Shown here: positions 7,854-63,349 of the stretch, in pieces
Layout: each line of letters starts with the position of its first letter
Numbering within the stretch: the stretch's first letter is position 1
Source of the DNA: Escherichia phage GADS24
Sequence record: OQ703618.1
DNA: 64,000 nucleotides
Strand: one strand, 5' to 3'
Position numbers and translations under genes: made by a program
Notes under the pieces: model-generated
Database searches by the model: none
What the model saw: only the letters and a program-made list of their open reading frames with translations
Told to the model about the DNA's origin: nothing

Positions 7854-8080
7854 TAGTAAGTTTCCTTCCAATAAGTTGTACCATTTTCAGTGATTTCACG
7901 GAAGATGCCATAGATAGGCATTTCGTCACCGAGTTTTTCGTAAACGTAAACCACTTCGGTGTAGCATAAAAATTCAGTCCAGCTTTTTTGTACAACAACT
8001 AAATCAGGATTAAACAGAACATCTTCAAACTCATTGATGTTTGAATCAGTAGTTACGTTTTTAATGATTTGACGTTTCAT
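7853..8080 (-). CDS. hypothetical protein
   Basis: ORF; start at MKRQII downstream of early promoter cassette. Confidence 0.4.
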
Positions 8081-8108
8081 AATATTCTCCTCTTGTTTTG
8101 ATAGGTCT

Positions 8109-8137
8109 ATAGTATCATAGACCATAGTTGTTGTACA
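8109..8137 (-). promoter_or_regulatory. T4-type early promoter (-35 TGTACA, 17-bp spacer, -10 TACTAT) with small inverted repeat around -10
   Basis: Minus-strand hexamers with 17-bp spacing, followed by conserved AGACCTATCAA. Confidence 0.55.
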
Positions 8138-8662
8138 TCATTTTAGCAAAATAAAATCAACTTGTTCTGCCAATGAACGTCTGAACATTAATTGACAACT
8201 TCCGAGGATGAAATCAGGTGCTTCATAGACCGCGATGTAGTATCCTTTAGCTTTCAAGAGTTCAACATCCACCTGGTCATCAAACCATGCATAAACCGCG
8301 TCAACACTTTCAAATCCAAAATAGAACCCTTGAGCCCAATCTTCGCTCAATTCAAATGCGTGATCAATTCTATAGTATCTTAAGATATTTTGTTCAAGGA
8401 GTTTGTCTTCATTTACTGTAGGACGATTAGGGACATTATAGTTGTCGCCGTGATGGTAGAAGTTACCTGAGAGTATTCCATGCTTATCAAGGAACTCCCA
8501 TGTTTCTTCAGAGTTGTCGGTGCCCGACCAACCGTATGGCGAGCGAGGTTCTTTATTCCAAGAGGTTTCCCAAATTCTGACGGCTTTACCGTCTTCGATA
8601 GCAATTCCAGGTAATGATTCACGTTGAGTACAAAAACTACGTTCTACGCGGTAAACTAACAT
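8138..8662 (-). CDS. hypothetical protein
   Basis: 174-aa ORF with SD, own early promoter. Confidence 0.5.
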   Translation of the reverse strand: MLVYRVERSFCTQRESLPGIAIEDGKAVRIWETSWNKEPRSPYGWSGTDNSEETWEFLDKHGILSGNFYHHGDNYNVPNRPTVNEDKLLEQNILRYYRIDHAFELSEDWAQGFYFGFESVDAVYAWFDDQVDVELLKAKGYYIAVYEAPDFILGSCQLMFRRSLAEQVDFILLK

Positions 8663-8688
8663 ATTATTCTCCTCTGGTTGATATGGTT

Positions 8689-8717
8689 ATAATATCAAAA
8701 CCAGAGGAGAAGTAAAC
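8689..8717 (-). promoter_or_regulatory. T4-type early promoter (-35 GTTTAC, -10 TATTAT) flanked by inverted repeat pairing with SD
   Basis: Hexamers 17 bp apart; arms cctctggtt/aaccagagg. Confidence 0.55.
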
Positions 8718-8721
8718 AACT

Positions 8722-9141
8722 TTATGCAAAAGCAGCTGGGCTATATTTTTTAATTTGGAATTCAGGAACTACCATGAACTGTCCAGCGAAAACGATGTTA
8801 TAAAGCTTGACACCATCTTCTACCCAACGGTCGCTAATAAATCCAGCGATTTGCTTAGTTTTCCACGGCGTTCCATCAGTTGCCGCAGCAATAGTGAATT
8901 CATGGTCTTTTTCAACAGAAACTGATCTGCATAGTCCCCATTTGAACGCTTTTTCTTCTGGTTCAATGAATTGGCTTTTAACGTAGCCAATATTACCATT
9001 AGCATCACGAACTTTAACTTGGTTACGGCCAAAAACCGGATCACTCACAGAAAGAACTTCAACCAACTTCCCGGCAACTTTAGAGCGAGAAGCAACAGAT
9101 ACATATACGTAATCACCTGTAGAGAGATTTACAATATTCAT
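8722..9141 (-). CDS. hypothetical protein, tandem paralog family member A
   Basis: 139 aa; shares SRSKxAGxLVEV and GFISDxWVEDGxKLYNIVF blocks with next ORF. Confidence 0.55.
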   Translation of the reverse strand: MNIVNLSTGDYVYVSVASRSKVAGKLVEVLSVSDPVFGRNQVKVRDANGNIGYVKSQFIEPEEKAFKWGLCRSVSVEKDHEFTIAAATDGTPWKTKQIAGFISDRWVEDGVKLYNIVFAGQFMVVPEFQIKKYSPAAFA

Positions 9142-9150
9142 AATAATTCC

Positions 9151-9648
9151 TTAAGCTTTACGAGGAGACACATAGCGAGTGATTTCAGATTCTTTAACAA
9201 CTCGGAAGTCACCTAAGAATACGATATTGTATAACTTTTCACCATCTTCAACCCATTGGTCACTAATGAAGCCACACATAATATCAGTTTTGCTTGGATA
9301 TCCGTATTCGTCGATGTAATCAAATTCTTTATCGGTTATAAATTCAACGCCTTTGCAAAGGGCCCATTTAAACTGTGTAGTAGGCTCAACGATATCGTTT
9401 GAAGCAAAGTGTGCAGGTGCAACTTCTTCGCTTGAAGCAAATTGGACTCGTATATGTTTTTCCAGGAATTTAGGACTTACGTAAGCATACTGGGCATCTT
9501 GTCCGCCAAAACTAGGAATGATTCGAACTTTAACTTCTTTAATACGTCCCATGCCATTTGTGCGAAGTCCGACAACTTCAACCAGACGACCTGCGGCTTT
9601 AGACCGGGATGCAGTTGATACACGTTTAATTTCACCAATAGTAATCAT
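9151..9648 (-). CDS. hypothetical protein, tandem paralog family member B
   Basis: Start taken at MITIGEIK with SD; ORF-track 5' extension overlaps promoter. Confidence 0.55.
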   Translation of the reverse strand: MITIGEIKRVSTASRSKAAGRLVEVVGLRTNGMGRIKEVKVRIIPSFGGQDAQYAYVSPKFLEKHIRVQFASSEEVAPAHFASNDIVEPTTQFKWALCKGVEFITDKEFDYIDEYGYPSKTDIMCGFISDQWVEDGEKLYNIVFLGDFRVVKESEITRYVSPRKA

Positions 9649-9678
9649 ATTTTTTCTCTCTTTGTTTAAGTTGAATTC

Positions 9679-9707
9679 ATTATACTCCATCCATCCTTGG
9701 ATGTACA
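9679..9707 (-). promoter_or_regulatory. T4-type early promoter (-35 TGTACA, -10 TATAAT)
   Basis: Hexamers 17 bp apart; part of repeated ~40-bp cassette. Confidence 0.55.
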
Positions 9708-9710
9708 ACA

Positions 9711-10205
9711 TTAATTTAGAATATTAACTACTGCACTACGTGGAACCACACTAAAGTCACCGGCATGAACAACGTTCAGAAGTTCAACCCCATCTTCAAT
9801 CCACTGGTCAGTTACCCAGCCACTTACCGGTCCAGCGAATGGTCGACGAATTGAAACTGCTTTACACAACAAGTCTGTAGGCTCAATAGGCTTAATCAGA
9901 GTACCGTACATACAAGCGATATCCATATCAAAGTGGAGACCATCTTTAACAGGTGCTTCTTCAATCAACAGTTCAAAGTCAGTGCTTGGAATGGCGGTAG
10001 TAGAAATTGTACCGTGTGAATTTTTAATTTCTAAGAATAACCAAGGGCCTTCAGCTTGTTTGATGAAGTTAACAATAGTGAAACTATTACCTTGAGTGGC
10101 ACCTAAAATTTCACAAAACTTTTCATAAGCTCGCACTGAAGCACCGTACCAGTTGATTTGTTTTTCGTCTTTCAGGATGTAAGTAGCCGTAGTATTGATA
10201 TTCAT
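9711..10205 (-). CDS. hypothetical protein, tandem paralog family member C
   Basis: 164 aa; C-terminal WVTDQWIEDGVELLNVV block related to members A and B. Confidence 0.55.
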   Translation of the reverse strand: MNINTTATYILKDEKQINWYGASVRAYEKFCEILGATQGNSFTIVNFIKQAEGPWLFLEIKNSHGTISTTAIPSTDFELLIEEAPVKDGLHFDMDIACMYGTLIKPIEPTDLLCKAVSIRRPFAGPVSGWVTDQWIEDGVELLNVVHAGDFSVVPRSAVVNILN

Positions 10206-10220
10206 AATGTTTTTCCTGTT

Positions 10221-10270
10221 TGGTTAAGATAGAAAGATTATACTCCAACCATCCTTGGTTGTAAACTGAT
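10221..10270 (-). repeat. ~50-bp early-promoter cassette copy (near-identical to 51801..51853)
   Basis: agatagaaagattatactccaacc[a/g]tccttggttgtaaactgattt seen at both sites. Confidence 0.7.
10237..10266 (-). promoter_or_regulatory. T4-type early promoter (-35 GTTTACA, -10 TATAAT)
   Basis: Hexamers with 17/18-bp spacer inside repeat cassette. Confidence 0.55.
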
Positions 10271-10271
10271 T

Positions 10272-10949
10272 TTATCGCTGTTTTACACTTAACGGGTCAG
10301 GATTCTCAGGGACATCTTCAAGGCCAAGCGCATAACGCTGAGCATATTTTAACATCAAAATATCTTTAGCACAATCATGAATACTATCATGGGCAACGAA
10401 TCCTTTTAGCGTACCCATCGGTAATGGACACATACTTAATCCTCGTGTCAACGAGTAAGCTTCGATTGCCGTACGAATATCGCGTTGAGCCCAGAATTTA
10501 ACCGGTTCTAATTTATCGGTATCAATCTCTGGTTCAAGAACACCTTCATCACGATAGAGGTCACGAATCAAATCGACCAATATCGGGAAGTCAAAGCTCA
10601 TACCACGGCACCACATCTGTGATTTCCATTGGTCAACTTTATTAGCTCGGCAATAATCTAAAAAGATTTTAATGCCTTCAAGCGTAGTGACATCGTCTTC
10701 AGACGGAGCTAGGTTTTTACGTGCTTCTGCTGATTGTTCTTTCCACCATTTCATAGTGGATTTAGCGAAAACTCGCTTCCCTTTCTGAGAAGCTAAATTA
10801 AATTTAATTCGCTTACCTCGTTGAACAAGTTCTTCAAATGATTCAACAACTTCAGGGTCGGAATTATATGCAATAACCGCAAGGTCAATAACAGCCGCTT
10901 TTGATGTATTGCCGAATGTTTCAAAATCTATAATAACATCAGTGCTCAT
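10272..10949 (-). CDS. dexA: exonuclease A (DEDD 3'-5' exonuclease)
   Basis: 225 aa; DFETFG motif and overall similarity to T4 DexA. Confidence 0.8.
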   Translation of the reverse strand: MSTDVIIDFETFGNTSKAAVIDLAVIAYNSDPEVVESFEELVQRGKRIKFNLASQKGKRVFAKSTMKWWKEQSAEARKNLAPSEDDVTTLEGIKIFLDYCRANKVDQWKSQMWCRGMSFDFPILVDLIRDLYRDEGVLEPEIDTDKLEPVKFWAQRDIRTAIEAYSLTRGLSMCPLPMGTLKGFVAHDSIHDCAKDILMLKYAQRYALGLEDVPENPDPLSVKQR

Positions 10950-21613: not shown

Positions 21614-21639
21614 TTTGTTCTCCAGTAGTTGATAAGTCT

Positions 21640-21668
21640 ATAATAACACAACTACTGGAGAAGTAAAC
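21640..21668 (-). promoter_or_regulatory. T4-type early promoter (-35 GTTTAC, -10 TATTAT) flanked by 10-bp inverted repeat ccagtagttg/caactactgg
   Basis: Hexamers 17 bp apart; arm pairs with SD region. Confidence 0.55.
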
Positions 21669-22043
21669 TTAAAAACGTAATTTAGATACATCTACGTTGA
21701 TTTCGCTTTGGTTTGCGTCGTATGCAATTAAACGAACCGCTTTAGATGGGTCATTCAATGCATAGAAATGATGGAACATTGCTCGAACGATATCACCATT
21801 TACGAGTTCTACCTGGATAGGAGAACCTTTTTCGAGTTGGAAATGTTCATAAGCTTTGATGGTTCGCAGATAATCAAGTTTTTGATTTCCGGCTCCAACA
21901 ATTTGTACGATACGTTTGCCCATGTTTTCCATACGAGATACAATAGTTTTAGGAGCAAGAATAACGTAGGTTGCCAGTGGAGAAACTACTTCAACAGTTG
22001 TGTTTTCGGTGATTGCAGTAAAAATTGCTTGAGACATATTCAT
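21669..22043 (-). CDS. hypothetical protein
   Basis: 124-aa ORF. Confidence 0.45.
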   Translation of the reverse strand: MNMSQAIFTAITENTTVEVVSPLATYVILAPKTIVSRMENMGKRIVQIVGAGNQKLDYLRTIKAYEHFQLEKGSPIQVELVNGDIVRAMFHHFYALNDPSKAVRLIAYDANQSEINVDVSKLRF

Positions 22044-51800: not shown

Positions 51801-51853
51801 CTCGTTAAGATAGAAAGATTATACTCCAACCGTCCTTGGTTGTAAACTGATTT
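51801..51853 (-). repeat. ~50-bp early-promoter cassette copy (near-identical to 10221..10270)
   Basis: Direct nucleotide comparison of both copies. Confidence 0.7.
51818..51847 (-). promoter_or_regulatory. T4-type early promoter (-35 TTTACA, -10 TATAAT)
   Basis: Hexamers 17 bp apart. Confidence 0.55.
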
Positions 51854-52787
51854 ATGGTTTTAATGCATTCATTGCGTTAAAAAGTTTAGAGTACTGCAAC
51901 TGGAGCTTGGTAACTACTTGTTGAGCATCACGAAGCTTAGCTTGTGCTTTATCAAGTTCAACAGACAGTTGGTCCATAGTGCCCTTGATTTGATTATAAT
52001 AGTAATCTTCGGCAGGAAGAAGACCATTAGATATTTCCAGTTTAGTCGACGGTGAAGTGTATATAGATGGAGCAGTAGAATATGCACCTAGAACTTCAGC
52101 ATTGCCAATTGGGGTTGCAGTAATTGACGCTTCGAACGTCGCATTTTCCTTTTTAAGATTTTGATAGTATTCAGAGTCTTTGTGCCACCATGGCGCAGGA
52201 ACCTTTTTACCAATAGATACACGAGCCTGGATAGCGATATGGCCCTTATTCTTGATAGGGTTGATAATATTAAGCTCGCGAGAATAAATTGCTTTAATCT
52301 GGTGGATATTATCACCTAACACTTCCAACGCTTGGTGGAATACACGAGCAACGTTATCATTCTTAGGTTTATACGTAAGAGTGAATTCGTTCTCACTGAT
52401 AACCATAATTTCCAACTTATCGTAAGTATATTTCAAATGTTTCATGTTAATTGCTTGAGGACGAATACGAGAAGCAATGGCCATCAGATTGTTAAGGTTA
52501 TTCCGGAACTGCTTAGCGAAATATTGTCCTTCACCACCAATACAAAAATTACGAAGTTTCTGTTTAGCTAATAAACGGCTGAACTCACCATTTTTAATGA
52601 ACTCTTTAACGGGTGTGTTAGTAACGCATTCAAATTGAGTAAACTTACGAGAAGTAATCCCATAATATGAACAGACTTCCTCAATCTCTTCAGGAGTCTT
52701 TACAGGCATACGGATAGGATTAGGTCCTGGAGTATATGCGTTCGAGGTAAATTCTTTGATAAGTTCTCTACGTGTAATAAAAGCCAT
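51852..52787 (-). CDS. hypothetical protein with C-terminal coiled coil
   Basis: 311 aa. Confidence 0.5.
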   Translation of the reverse strand: MAFITRRELIKEFTSNAYTPGPNPIRMPVKTPEEIEEVCSYYGITSRKFTQFECVTNTPVKEFIKNGEFSRLLAKQKLRNFCIGGEGQYFAKQFRNNLNNLMAIASRIRPQAINMKHLKYTYDKLEIMVISENEFTLTYKPKNDNVARVFHQALEVLGDNIHQIKAIYSRELNIINPIKNKGHIAIQARVSIGKKVPAPWWHKDSEYYQNLKKENATFEASITATPIGNAEVLGAYSTAPSIYTSPSTKLEISNGLLPAEDYYYNQIKGTMDQLSVELDKAQAKLRDAQQVVTKLQLQYSKLFNAMNALKP

Positions 52788-52813
52788 TTTATATTCCTCG
52801 TGTTGAAAAATTT

Positions 52814-52842
52814 ATTATACTCCAACCGTCCTTGGTTGTACA
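52814..52842 (-). promoter_or_regulatory. T4-type early promoter (-35 TGTACA, -10 TATAAT), cassette variant
   Basis: Hexamers 17 bp apart; shares tatactccaaccgtccttggttgta with other copies. Confidence 0.55.
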
Positions 52843-53838
52843 TCATTCCTTAAGAAGTTTTACTACTTGAATAAGATTAGCTCGTTCTGTTTTATTTTTA
52901 CCGTTTAAGCCTGCTAATCGTGAGATTTCATCGTCAGTCTGTTGAATAGTTACATTAAGTTCGTTAATCAAAGCTTCAAAGTATTTGATTTGCTCAGCAT
53001 GTTTTGATTCAAATTTCTGAACCGGAATAACGTCTTGGTTCAGTTCATCAATAAGGTCTTTAAGAGCATCTTCTTGGTTGATATCATATTCAACTTCTTT
53101 TATTTCTTCAACGAGCTCGTCTTTATATCTAACGTCTTTTAGTCCTGGAGCTGGTCCTGAAATCTCTTCTTTAAGAGTACAAACATATACATTACGGTAT
53201 CTAATGCCGTCTCGCTTGATATCAACTTCGTCAATAAATCCACAATGTTTAAGTCCAGAGCCGATTATGTCAAAATATCCTTGACGTTGTCCTTCAAACG
53301 TTACACGAACTACTAAGACAGTTTTGCCACCAACCTTTTGAAGCTCACATTTATAAAAGTCTGTTGAACCTGAATAACGCGGATGAGTTTTAAAGTTCAT
53401 CTGACGATCTAGGCCCATTTGTAAGCGTGCTGATACGGCCATAAAACGTGTTTGGTTCTCGTTAAGATGAGCAACAATCCGTTTCAAAGGCATTTTACCC
53501 TGTTCACGACCGAACAAATCAGTACGTCCTAGATTACGCAGAATGTTGTTAGAGTTAATCATCGACAGAACGTTAAGTTTATTCAGCGCGCTGAAGATTC
53601 CATCGGCCATTGATTTTCCGTAACCTTTACACGCTTTAATAAGCGCTCGCGGGAGATTAGTATAGATTTCAGACGGCATATGAAAATCAAATTTACTAGT
53701 CAGTAATTGATGAACTTGGATAGCAATTTGCTCATAATTAAGTGCTCTGCGATCGTTATGGTCTTTAAACCACACTTTAATCTGTGAAGCACATAAACCG
53801 TTAATTTCATGTTTTACCGCATCAGATGTAATGCTCAT
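52843..53838 (-). CDS. hypothetical protein with C-terminal coiled coil
   Basis: 331 aa. Confidence 0.5.
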   Translation of the reverse strand: MSITSDAVKHEINGLCASQIKVWFKDHNDRRALNYEQIAIQVHQLLTSKFDFHMPSEIYTNLPRALIKACKGYGKSMADGIFSALNKLNVLSMINSNNILRNLGRTDLFGREQGKMPLKRIVAHLNENQTRFMAVSARLQMGLDRQMNFKTHPRYSGSTDFYKCELQKVGGKTVLVVRVTFEGQRQGYFDIIGSGLKHCGFIDEVDIKRDGIRYRNVYVCTLKEEISGPAPGLKDVRYKDELVEEIKEVEYDINQEDALKDLIDELNQDVIPVQKFESKHAEQIKYFEALINELNVTIQQTDDEISRLAGLNGKNKTERANLIQVVKLLKE

Positions 53839-53900
53839 AACTATTTCCTCAGATTGAATTGGAACTCAGAACCATTATAACCCGTCCTTGGGTAAAGCGT

Positions 53901-54428
53901 TTATGCGTGAACCGTCTTTAAACGTTCTTCAAATTTCCGAAGAGTACTAATACGTTCTGCTTTCTGTTTTGTATAGTTTGCAATACGTTCTGAAGTGAGA
54001 GCGTATCGTTCGTTTACTGTTTCTTTCATGAAGTCAGGGATTTCACGAGAAGCTTTAATTTCATCAAACTTATCGAGTACTGCCTGGTCTTCAGCGATTA
54101 AATTTTCGTACATCTCGATATCTTTCTTGATAAACTCGATATCTTCCTGGGTTACTTTGGATAAACGAGATGCTTTATCCTTTTTGTACTGCTCGTTAGT
54201 TTCACGAGACCAGAATAATGTACGTTTTTTGTTAGTATTTTTGTAGACTTCCACAATTCCAACTGAATCGATGATAGCAATCCAATTCCAGCGAGATTTG
54301 AAAATCTGACCTCCGTCCACGGTAATCTCATTACCATAAGCAACGTCATTAAAGAACTTGCTTTGTGCTTCAGATTTAAATTTACCGTCGTTATAATTTA
54401 CCAGGTTGAAAATATCTTTAGCGTTCAT
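53901..54428 (-). CDS. hypothetical protein
   Basis: 175-aa ORF. Confidence 0.5.
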   Translation of the reverse strand: MNAKDIFNLVNYNDGKFKSEAQSKFFNDVAYGNEITVDGGQIFKSRWNWIAIIDSVGIVEVYKNTNKKRTLFWSRETNEQYKKDKASRLSKVTQEDIEFIKKDIEMYENLIAEDQAVLDKFDEIKASREIPDFMKETVNERYALTSERIANYTKQKAERISTLRKFEERLKTVHA

Positions 54429-54455
54429 GTTTTACCTCCAGTAGTTGATAGGTCT

Positions 54456-54484
54456 ATAATAACATAACCATAGACCTTGTAAAC
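54456..54484 (-). promoter_or_regulatory. T4-type early promoter (-35 GTTTAC, -10 TATTAT)
   Basis: Hexamers 17 bp apart. Confidence 0.55.
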
Positions 54485-54486
54485 AA

Positions 54487-54774
54487 CTAAAAGAAACTTT
54501 TTTCGGTATTTTTTCCACTGAACCAAACCGACTTCGGGACTTTCTGTAATTTTTCGGATTTAAGTTTCTCTTCCTGTTCTTTCTTATATGCATCCTTGTC
54601 GTACTGGAACAACTCTAGGGCATTCTTTTGTAGACGGTCTAAGGTAATTAAGGCTTTAGTTTTTCCTTTCAAGGAAGAGTCCTGGCGAACCTCCTCGCTA
54701 TATTGCATTGTAGAACTAACCATACGATGAGCATACAGTTCGACTGCGGCTTTAATTTTTTGCATAAAATCCAT
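54487..54774 (-). CDS. hypothetical protein
   Basis: 95-aa ORF. Confidence 0.4.
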   Translation of the reverse strand: MDFMQKIKAAVELYAHRMVSSTMQYSEEVRQDSSLKGKTKALITLDRLQKNALELFQYDKDAYKKEQEEKLKSEKLQKVPKSVWFSGKNTEKSFF

Positions 54775-59341: not shown

Positions 59342-59368
59342 AACGTTCTCCTCTAGTAAGTAAAGACT

Positions 59369-59397
59369 ACTATAACACAACCTGAGGAGAAGTAAAC
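59369..59397 (-). promoter_or_regulatory. T4-type early promoter (-35 GTTTAC, -10 TATAGT)
   Basis: Hexamers 17 bp apart. Confidence 0.55.
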
Positions 59398-59407
59398 TGC
59401 TAAATGC

Positions 59408-59436
59408 AAAAAAGCCCCAACCGTAAGGAAGGGGCT
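59408..59436 (-). terminator. intrinsic terminator
   Basis: Stem gcccc/ggggc with T6 on minus strand. Confidence 0.55.
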
Positions 59437-62993: not shown

Positions 62994-63021
62994 TTTGATT
63001 TCTCCTCTAGTTGACAGGTCT

Positions 63022-63050
63022 ATAGTAACACAACTAGAGGAGAAGTAAAC
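63022..63050 (-). promoter_or_regulatory. T4-type early promoter (-35 GTTTAC, -10 TACTAT) flanked by 11-bp inverted repeat tcctctagttg/caactagagga
   Basis: Hexamers 17 bp apart; downstream arm carries regB SD. Confidence 0.6.
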
Positions 63051-63349
63051 TACTCTTTGAAAGGAATTAACTTTTTAACTGCTTTAGATACTTCGTCACG
63101 AACCTGGTGGAAGTTCTTGAGCTGTTCAAGGCGTTGTTCGTAATACGCAATCTCATCTTCTTCAAGACAATCATCAGCGTCTTCTTTCAGATATGCCTTG
63201 TACTCATTAAAGAGGGCCCATAGGCGATTCTCAAAGTCATCAAGGCTTTGAATTTTCTTGTGCTTCGGAACAAGGCCAAAAGGATTGCTTTCAGTTATGC
63301 GTCGAGATGCTTCATAATGAGTTCCAAAGCCTGATAGGATTTGAGCCAT
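63050..63349 (-). CDS. hypothetical protein
   Basis: Start MAQILSG; TAATG overlap with upstream gene. Confidence 0.45.

Follow-up and report, generated by a model that had tools for sequence, protein, structure and literature searches.

Why would a phage keep almost the same stretch of some 50 nucleotides at two distant places in its genome? The question is raised by Escherichia phage GADS24, of which 64,000 nucleotides (OQ703618.1) were analysed, a stretch referred to here as the window. Are the repeats promoters? Do they recombine and, if so, which copy with which? What keeps the two distant copies so similar? The setting of the repeats is a familiar one. Over two 3-kb segments that include the sites, many Escherichia and Shigella phages of the RB69/JS09/HX01 group (Mosigvirus) match the window at 95-98% identity, JN02 being the closest relative. 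The early genes of the window lie on the minus strand. With gene names taken from the RB69 annotation of the syntenic region and from ORF lists, the order is dda - dexA - motB.1-like - motB - MotB-like - motB.2 - cef at the first site and nrdC.8 - nrdC.6 - nrdC.5 - nrdC.3 - nrdC.2 at the second.

Four copies of a predicted promoter cassette

A string of 46 nt is present at exactly two places of the window, 10227-10272 and 51808-51853, and the only difference between them is the A/G position that the original prediction had pointed out; none of 100 dinucleotide shuffles produced a match. Repeat finding lengthened this pair, cassettes A and B, to 50 nt (10223-10272 against 51804-51853, 49 of 50 positions identical, 98%). 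It also recovered the two related, weaker copies that had been claimed, A' at 9665-9714 and B' at 52800-52849, each 68% identical to A over 50 nt. The coordinates first given for the repeats led to the right sites and were off by a few bases. A core of 26-27 nt, TTATACTCCAACCRTCCTTGGTTGTA, is found in the four copies with 0, 0, 0 and 2 mismatches, none being expected by chance. The copies come as neighbours, A and A' being 558 bp apart and B' and B 996 bp. Exact-pattern scans for the cassette returned only 11 loci in IMG/VR and 11 in JGI metagenomes.

How is such a cassette built? On the minus strand each copy starts with the stop codon of the upstream gene, followed after 0-6 nt by T(T/G)TACA, 17 nt, TATAAT, 25-35 nt containing a Shine-Dalgarno sequence (SD), and ATG. 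The 17-nt spacer reads A(A/T)CCAAGGA(T/C)GG(T/A)TGGAG. Cassette A (10223..10274) lies between dexA and the motB.1-like ORF, with the dexA stop codon at 10274-10272, the putative -35 TTTACA at 10265-10260, the -10 TATAAT at 10242-10237 and the ATG at 10205. Cassette A' (9665..9714), between the motB.1-like ORF and motB, has its stop codon at 9713-9711, -35 TGTACA at 9707-9702, -10 TATAAT at 9684-9679 and ATG at 9648. At the second site, cassette B (51804..51854) separates nrdC.5 from nrdC.3 (nrdC.5 stop codon 51854-51852, -35 TTTACA 51846-51841, -10 TATAAT 51823-51818, nrdC.3 ATG 51789), and cassette B' (52800..52849) separates nrdC.6 from nrdC.5 (nrdC.6 stop codon 52845-52843, -35 TGTACA 52842-52837, -10 TATAAT 52819-52814, nrdC.5 ATG 52787). 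All four are on the minus strand.

Does this anatomy describe a promoter? In each of the two regions scanned, two of the four copies rank above all other sigma70-like sites, matching the consensus at 11/12 and 10/12 positions. The T-even early promoter of Nolan 2006 (PMC1524935) combines GTTTAC at -36 to -31 with TATAAT at -12 to -7 and has an A-rich stretch at about -40 to -44, and the early-promoter consensus of T4/PST is TTTACW-N17-TAYWAT (Comeau 2014, PMC4122927); the cassettes fit the latter. A and B read aaa(a)tcaGTTTACA...TATAAT, and A' and B' carry TGTACA, one mismatch to the T4-type early consensus. Matching of coordinates places the RB69 orthologues on the Nolan 2006 list of predicted early promoters, A being Pe:8947, A' Pe:8387, B Pe:51019 and B' Pe:52042; their HMM scores there are 27.2, 27.8, 18.2 and 6.2 bits (PMC1524935), for promoters that are HMM-predicted and not mapped. 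A relative, NBG1, has copy A annotated as a promoter. MotA-dependent middle promoters have a MotA box 11-13 bp upstream of the -10, in place of a -35. A, A', B and B' have neither this box, (a/t)(a/t)TGCTT(t/c)A, nor any GCTT box; their -35 hexamer stands at 17 bp. The name promoter cassette, under which the repeats were first reported, thus suits these elements, predicted to be promoters from their T-even early consensus, their intergenic position directly upstream of SD and ATG, and their RB69 orthologues on the predicted list. To judge from consensus and orthology, host RNA polymerase would fire from the cassettes right after infection and transcribe the motB.1-like ORF, motB, nrdC.5 and nrdC.3.

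The cassettes resemble the RB69 early promoters of the same source, which in its accessible part show a GTTTAC-type -35, an A-rich upstream region and TATAAT. That part offers one general consensus and does not single out the shared spacer, the hairpin described below or recombination (Nolan 2006, PMC1524935).

What do these promoters flank? The original prediction spoke of accessory ORFs of unknown function, a description that applies to nrdC.3, nrdC.5, nrdC.6 and the MotB-family ORFs: PHROGs places the flanked ORFs in the MotB-like family or in families without assigned function. Between A and A' lies the motB.1-like ORF (9711..10205, minus strand, 164 aa, phrog_2333), with a C-terminal MotB-like domain, and between B' and B lies nrdC.5 (51852..52787, minus strand, 311 aa, phrog_2351, unknown function). 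The ORFs that follow A and A' have the MotB-like C-terminal domain in common. By blastp no similarity was found among nrdC.3, nrdC.5, nrdC.6 and dexA, nor between any of these and the MotB ORFs. Tandem gene duplication as the origin of B and B' was ruled out on this ground, nrdC.3, nrdC.5 and nrdC.6 being unrelated by blastp and only the MotB ORFs sharing a domain.

A side observation concerns the annotation of motB.1. The RB69 'motB.1' together with the 29-aa ORF012 (RB69 locus 2377-2873), and T4 motB.1 (T4 locus 722-1151), align to the 164-aa ORF of the window in two or three frames, so that the reference annotations describe frameshifted or truncated versions of the gene.

Loss of genes between neighbouring copies

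Have these repeats recombined in nature? Chimeric junctions were found in two metagenome contigs, joining the dexA flank through the cassette to the start of motB and the nrdC.6 flank through the cassette to the start of nrdC.3. As such contigs may be assembly chimeras across the repeat, they were set aside as evidence of deletion and the junctions were searched in genomes of cultured phages, where they hold. nrdC.6, cassette and nrdC.3 are contiguous in 21 of 153 matching related records, from which nrdC.5 has been lost, and the annotation of p000v, F2, ESCO47 and AV115 accordingly runs nrdC.8 - nrdC.6 - nrdC.3 - nrdC.2. The other junction, dexA directly followed by cassette and motB, is present in at least six records, with loss of motB.1: VIPECOMC06, ST2, JK42 and AV116 are annotated as dda - dexA - motB - MotB-like, without the 164-aa ORF, and in PTK and AV114 the motB.1-like ORF is missing by a single-piece junction match. 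Since T4 also has nrdC.5 and motB.1, loss is the simpler direction of change. Fully conserved gene content at the junctions had been set beforehand as the observation that would speak against recombination, and it is not what the isolates display, many of them lacking precisely the gene between neighbouring copies.

Where do the crossovers fall? In every junction the upstream flank comes from one copy and the downstream flank from the other. Most crossovers can be placed no finer than the identical core. The hybrid spacers CAACC...GGATG of JK42 and ESCO47 (two isolates) put the crossover inside CCAAGGAYGG, in events separate from the others. Flanking haplotypes also differ among deletion carriers, F2 being 99.1% identical in nrdC.6 to the undeleted phage LNA2, and p000v being closest to another undeleted phage. 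A third deletion was found in ST2, which lacks motB.2. Comparison of the ST2 locus (2310-2410) with the window (8060-8160 and 8650-8740) shows a junction made of the 5' part of the promoter between MotB-like and motB.2 and the 3' part of the promoter between motB.2 and cef, two non-identical cassettes. Gene content changes at these sites over longer distances too: nrdC.5 and nrdC.3, joined in Mosigvirus, have nrdC.4 at their junction in T4 and JS98-like phages, and directly after dexA comes motB.2 in T4 and motB.1 in the window phage.

How would these deletions arise? The comparisons show a shared 27-bp core long enough for homologous or short-homology recombination of neighbouring copies. An exchange between neighbours removes the intervening gene and leaves one intact, sometimes chimeric, promoter, and the outcome is the gene presence/absence polymorphism seen among natural Mosigvirus isolates. 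The T-even UvsX/46/47 recombination system probably performs the exchanges. Replication slippage between the repeats, in place of recombinase-mediated exchange, could formally also produce the deletions. We regard it as very likely that the explanation as a whole is right, namely that the four repeats are one subfamily of predicted T-even sigma70 early promoters, every copy forming a complete cassette between two genes, and that adjacent copies recombine. The idea of the repeats as substrates for recombination and gene shuffling is supported for the tandem pairs A/A' and B'/B, though not for the distant A/B pair, which the original prediction had emphasised.

Such behaviour has precedents. Work on RB49 and phi1 described PeSLs, in which an upstream stop codon in an A/T-rich stretch is followed by -35 and -10 elements, a stem-loop, an SD and an ATG; the stem-loop is most often found between -35 and -10 or over the -10, and PeSLs are repeated among accessory ORFs and act as crossover points (Arbiol 2010, PMC2839356). 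The cassettes fit this anatomy element for element. They share with PeSLs a strong sigma70-type promoter, the presence of copies between unrelated accessory ORFs, and exchange between neighbours that deletes the intervening ORF and leaves a chimeric cassette. They also sit among accessory ORFs of the non-essential type, the hyperplastic location required of a PeSL. RB49 PeSLs differ in having near-perfect TTGACA/TATAAT, where the cassettes have the T-even T(T/G)TACA as -35. A closer match in the promoter itself is offered by the T4/PST PeSLs (Comeau, Arbiol & Krisch 2014, PMC4122927), with TTTACW-N17-TAYWAT, hyperplastic early-gene regions and indels between close relatives. Their stem-loops, however, lie just upstream of the promoter and have the form AGNA-loop-TCNT with variable sequence, whereas in the cassettes the stem-loop is inside the spacer and has a fixed CC-AAGGAY-GG core. 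The analysis in PMC4122927 was made without the Mosigvirus (RB69) group. In sum of kind, the element is a predicted T-even early-promoter cassette of the PeSL type. What is already known is that the RB69 promoters are predicted and that the mechanism has been proposed, and partly demonstrated, in RB49/phi1, T4/PST and KVP40/nt-1. What is added here are deletions in many natural Mosigvirus isolates, with crossovers mapped into the cassette, and a subfamily of predicted promoters with a covarying CC-AAGGAY-GG spacer hairpin across three genera.

The well-sampled RB69/JS09 coliphages provide a natural, sequence-level example of how accessory early genes are gained and lost while their neighbours are left undisturbed. 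The unit of exchange is a gene with its promoter, and the crossover site is the repeated promoter. The PeSL model is now backed by dozens of independent isolate genomes and not just by one phage pair. In therapeutic phages the junctions are predictable deletion hot spots, and engineering has natural landing sites in them; at cassette sites, pipelines for annotation and assembly should reckon with presence/absence polymorphism.

Two further observations were made on the deletion carriers. Over positions 300-1550 of the locus, ESCO47 and p000v are only 40-75% identical, a block that covers the 3' half of nrdC.8 and most of nrdC.6, and identity is again above 90% from about 150 bp before the B'/B cassette. 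A mosaic breakpoint exactly at the cassette of ESCO47 was considered and rejected, as the end of the divergent block lies some 150 bp farther upstream. The records NC_054913.1 (F2) and OM982647.1 (ST2) carry the taxonomy lines Tequatrovirus and Kagunavirus, yet they are about 95-98% identical to Mosigvirus-type sequence where compared.

The spacer hairpin and conservation of the cassette

All four spacers contain a perfect inverted repeat of 5-6 bp, CA(A/T)CCA-AGGA-TGG(T/A)TG. In cassette A it reads CAACCA-AGGA-TGGTTG (10261-10246, minus strand) and is followed by GGAG. B (51842-51827) and B' (52838-52823) both have CAACC-AAGGAC-GGTTG, also on the minus strand, and A' has CATCCA-AGGA-TGGATG (9703-9688, minus strand), in which a compensated double change has turned an A-T pair of the stem of the other copies into T-A. 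A scan for stems around AAGGAY led to a related promoter between nrdC.8 and nrdC.6, site C (53874..53905, minus strand), made of a MotA-box-like GCTTTA (53898-53893), ACCC-AAGGAC-GGGT (53893-53880) and TATAAT (53879-53874). Its GCTTTA is 13 nt upstream of TATAAT. Site C has the loop and the CC/GG closing pairs in common with the cassette, and its outer stem is different. It is not in the published list of RB69 middle promoters.

Is the complementarity conserved? T4 has related sites between nrdC.4 and nrdC.3 (AGCC-AAGGAT-GGCT), between nrdC.8 and nrdC.7 (TATACC-AAGGAT-GGTATA) and between nrdC.5 and nrdC.4 (CCACA-AGGA-TGTGG), and the site orthologous to site C in T4 and JS98-like phages is TATACC-AAGGAT-GGTATA. 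The stem position beside CC/GG at orthologous site B is occupied by A-T in Mosigvirus, by T-A in JS98-like phages and by G-C in T4; at site C, Mosigvirus has C-G there, and T4 and JS98-like phages have A-T. Over 11 variants, double-sided changes affect four of the six pairs, and one pair takes all four Watson-Crick types, its only unpaired cases being the two recombinant hybrids. The covariation score of these 11 variants was reached by none of 500 shuffles, a statistic inflated by the choice of the aligned sites for having a stem, so that only the comparison of orthologous sites is unbiased. At orthologous site A', T4 has another spacer hairpin, ACTCTTGGGACCAGAGT, which elsewhere in Mosigvirus is part of another subfamily; this suggests that spacer modules are swapped between promoters over time.

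How widely is the hairpin used within one genome? The complete genome of LNA2 (MZ311865.1) has eight exact CCAAGGAYGG sites, every one of them in a promoter spacer and on the strand of the early genes. Three of these, at positions 86592, 77975 and 20258, fall outside the region equivalent to the window; their stems are AACACC/GGTGTT, ATCC/GGAT and CACC/GGTG, and they are upstream of small ORFs of 166, 65 and 54 aa, respectively. The promoter at 77975 can be counted as a fifth near-copy of the cassette, of the A' type. In a crude scan of LNA2 the early strand had 64 early-type promoters and the opposite strand 7. Many of these bear some inverted repeat, in several recurring subfamilies, and the same is seen in the window. 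The pattern CCAAGGAYGG-N0-10-TATAAT was also scanned for in IMG/VR, where the matches listed are mostly single and on contigs without other link to this phage; among the matches listed, the informative ones are second sites in JS98-like contigs. A literature search with the motif string returned no match. Taken across these genomes, the predicted spacer hairpin, with its invariant CC-AAGGAY-GG and covarying outer pairs, is a conserved module of a promoter subfamily.

What, then, explains the near-identity of the distant copies? If A and B were exchanged reciprocally, about 41 kb with replication genes would be lost, so that only conversion is conceivable. No rearrangement is seen for this pair, and gene conversion left no clear trace in the six genomes compared. 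Concerted evolution of A and B was considered when it seemed that in RB69, and likewise in the window, the two copies had a private variant at about -40 in common, and was dropped when the pattern proved inconsistent over the six genomes. Site B is also polymorphic downstream of its -10 ('ctttc' versus 'gaatc'), for which ancestral and derived states can account without any A-to-B conversion. The cassette is about 85% identical in JS98-like loci, in which tblastn with nrdC.3 of the window found no match, and within the 40-75% block that separates ESCO47 from p000v, identity rises above 90% in an island over the intergenic promoter between nrdC.8 and nrdC.6. In JS98-like loci and in ESCO47, the predicted intergenic promoters are more conserved than the genes that flank them. 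The near-identity of A and B is best explained by common descent together with strong constraint on the whole cassette, and conversion between promoters now and then may also contribute.

Could the repeats instead be mere relics of duplication, promoter and gene having been copied together, and the identity of A and B a recent accident without significance? For A and A', which precede ORFs that share the MotB-like C-terminal domain, tandem duplication of gene and promoter is plausible. Beyond this pair the idea meets nrdC.3, nrdC.5, nrdC.6 and dexA, which have no detectable kinship to each other or to the MotB ORFs, and a cassette that is kept in JS98-like phages, and partly in T4, despite greatly diverged flanking genes. 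The conserved promoter islands in divergent blocks and the confinement of all eight exact sites of a complete genome to promoter spacers also speak against relics. Conservation across genera largely refutes this reading, and we consider it extremely improbable.

Possible functions of the hairpin

The stem-loops of RB49 PeSLs are G/C-rich (GGGG...CCCC) and terminate transcription in reporter assays, whereas the cassettes have short, weak ones, for which no terminator activity is predicted and whose AAGGAY loop is invariant. Folded as RNA the hairpin has -5 to -9 kcal/mol (z-scores of -1.3 to +0.5 relative to shuffled sequence), and copy A has another fold of lower energy. With 3-4 G-C pairs in its stem and GAGUAUAAU after the stem, the hairpin lacks the G+C-rich stem plus U-tract of an intrinsic terminator. 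A terminator scan of both strands did not flag the hairpin and detected no U-tract, and Rfam returned no family in the window. The weak fold, the missing U-tract and the silent terminator scan mean that the 'effective terminator' property of RB49 PeSLs is not supported here.

Might the hairpin still act on read-through RNA? It would do so by attenuation or termination, or as a processing or ribosome-binding signal, and would uncouple neighbouring cassettes. One variant takes the SD-like AAGGA and the GGAU of the loop as such signals, with the GGAG directly 3' of the stem as a target of RegB/S1. RegB cuts GGAG/U between GG and A in early intergenic regions, strong sites fitting GGAGRAYARAA, and it requires an unpaired GGA, with a constrained fourth base (PMC3014915). 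That complementarity is kept through compensatory changes agrees with a role in RNA, as does the termination by RB49 stem-loops in reporter assays (PMC2839356); in the cassette, moreover, the stem is followed by GGAGUAUAAUC, and the loop contains a GGAU whose U is paired. The match of GGAGUAUAAUC to the RegB consensus is only partial, however, at about 4 of the 7 positions after GGAG, and with the common C allele GGAU becomes GGAC and the pair that closes the loop is broken on the mRNA strand. With a stability no better than that of shuffles, no U-tract and no Rfam family in the window, an action on read-through RNA appears rather unlikely.

The alternative is that the palindrome works as DNA. 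A dimeric protein of the phage (perhaps of the MotB family) or of the host would bind CAACCA-N4-TGGTTG between -35 and -10, and co-regulation of a subset of early promoters would keep the sequence near-identical at distant loci. The inverted repeat is placed exactly where repressors act, its CC-AAGGAY-GG core is invariant over three genera, all exact copies of a whole genome are in promoter spacers, and two of the four cassettes would drive MotB-family genes. The outer stem positions, on the other hand, run through all four Watson-Crick pairs with complementarity kept, which is typical of a folded strand and not of base-specific recognition by a protein. The centre, AAGGAY, is asymmetric, the distance from stem to -10 varies from 0 to 5 nt among family members, and natural hybrids with broken symmetry are viable; no candidate binding protein has been identified. 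Binding of such a protein to the spacer is thus improbable, and it is hard to credit co-regulation with the near-identity of the distant copies.

What remains is a more general proposal, which we put forward tentatively and as more probably wrong than right. The hairpin, with its 2-4 covarying outer pairs, would be a distinct, selected module that marks at least eight early and middle promoters per genome, is common to Mosigvirus, JS98-like phages and T4, is swapped between orthologous promoters and has a function of its own beyond current T-even descriptions. This function may be that of a signal in read-through or antisense RNA (RegB/S1 cleavage, or ribosome capture by the SD-like loop) or that of a structure which targets recombination; attenuation, an operator, or a mere quasi-palindrome maintained by templated mutation are further candidates. 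Two viable isolates bear mismatched hybrid stems. The conserved AAGGAY spacer hairpin thus poses a small, testable question on T-even early transcription.

Another feature of the loop is a T/C polymorphism at its closing position (window 10250, 9692, 51831 and 52827), which recurs at every site in different phages. The change turns A-U into A.C on the mRNA strand, and on the opposite strand A-U would become G.U and the pair would be kept. This could hint at the plus strand as the folded one, or the position may simply be a mutational hot spot.

Stem-loops at T-even promoters are also known from T4 genes e, soc, 49 and I-TevI, whose ribosome-binding site is sequestered by such structures (reviewed in PMC3014915). 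The cassettes resemble these structures in that an inverted repeat at the promoter gives read-through RNA and promoter-proximal RNA different structures, and differ in that the stem-loop is wholly upstream of the -10, with the downstream SD outside it. The sequestering logic does fit many other early promoters of the window, whose spacer is complementary to the SD. Minus-strand promoters at 8667-8729, 21618-21680, 54434-54496, 59347-59409 and 63000-63062 have an inverted repeat of 10-14 bp that bridges the -10, with predicted folding energies of -15 to -24 kcal/mol, and the Shine-Dalgarno region downstream (AACCAGAGGAGAA) has its reverse complement in the spacer (e.g. TTCTCCTCTGGTT). In transcripts that read through from upstream the SD would be hidden, and RNA from the gene's own promoter would be made without the 5' arm, so that translation would be tied to the gene's own promoter.
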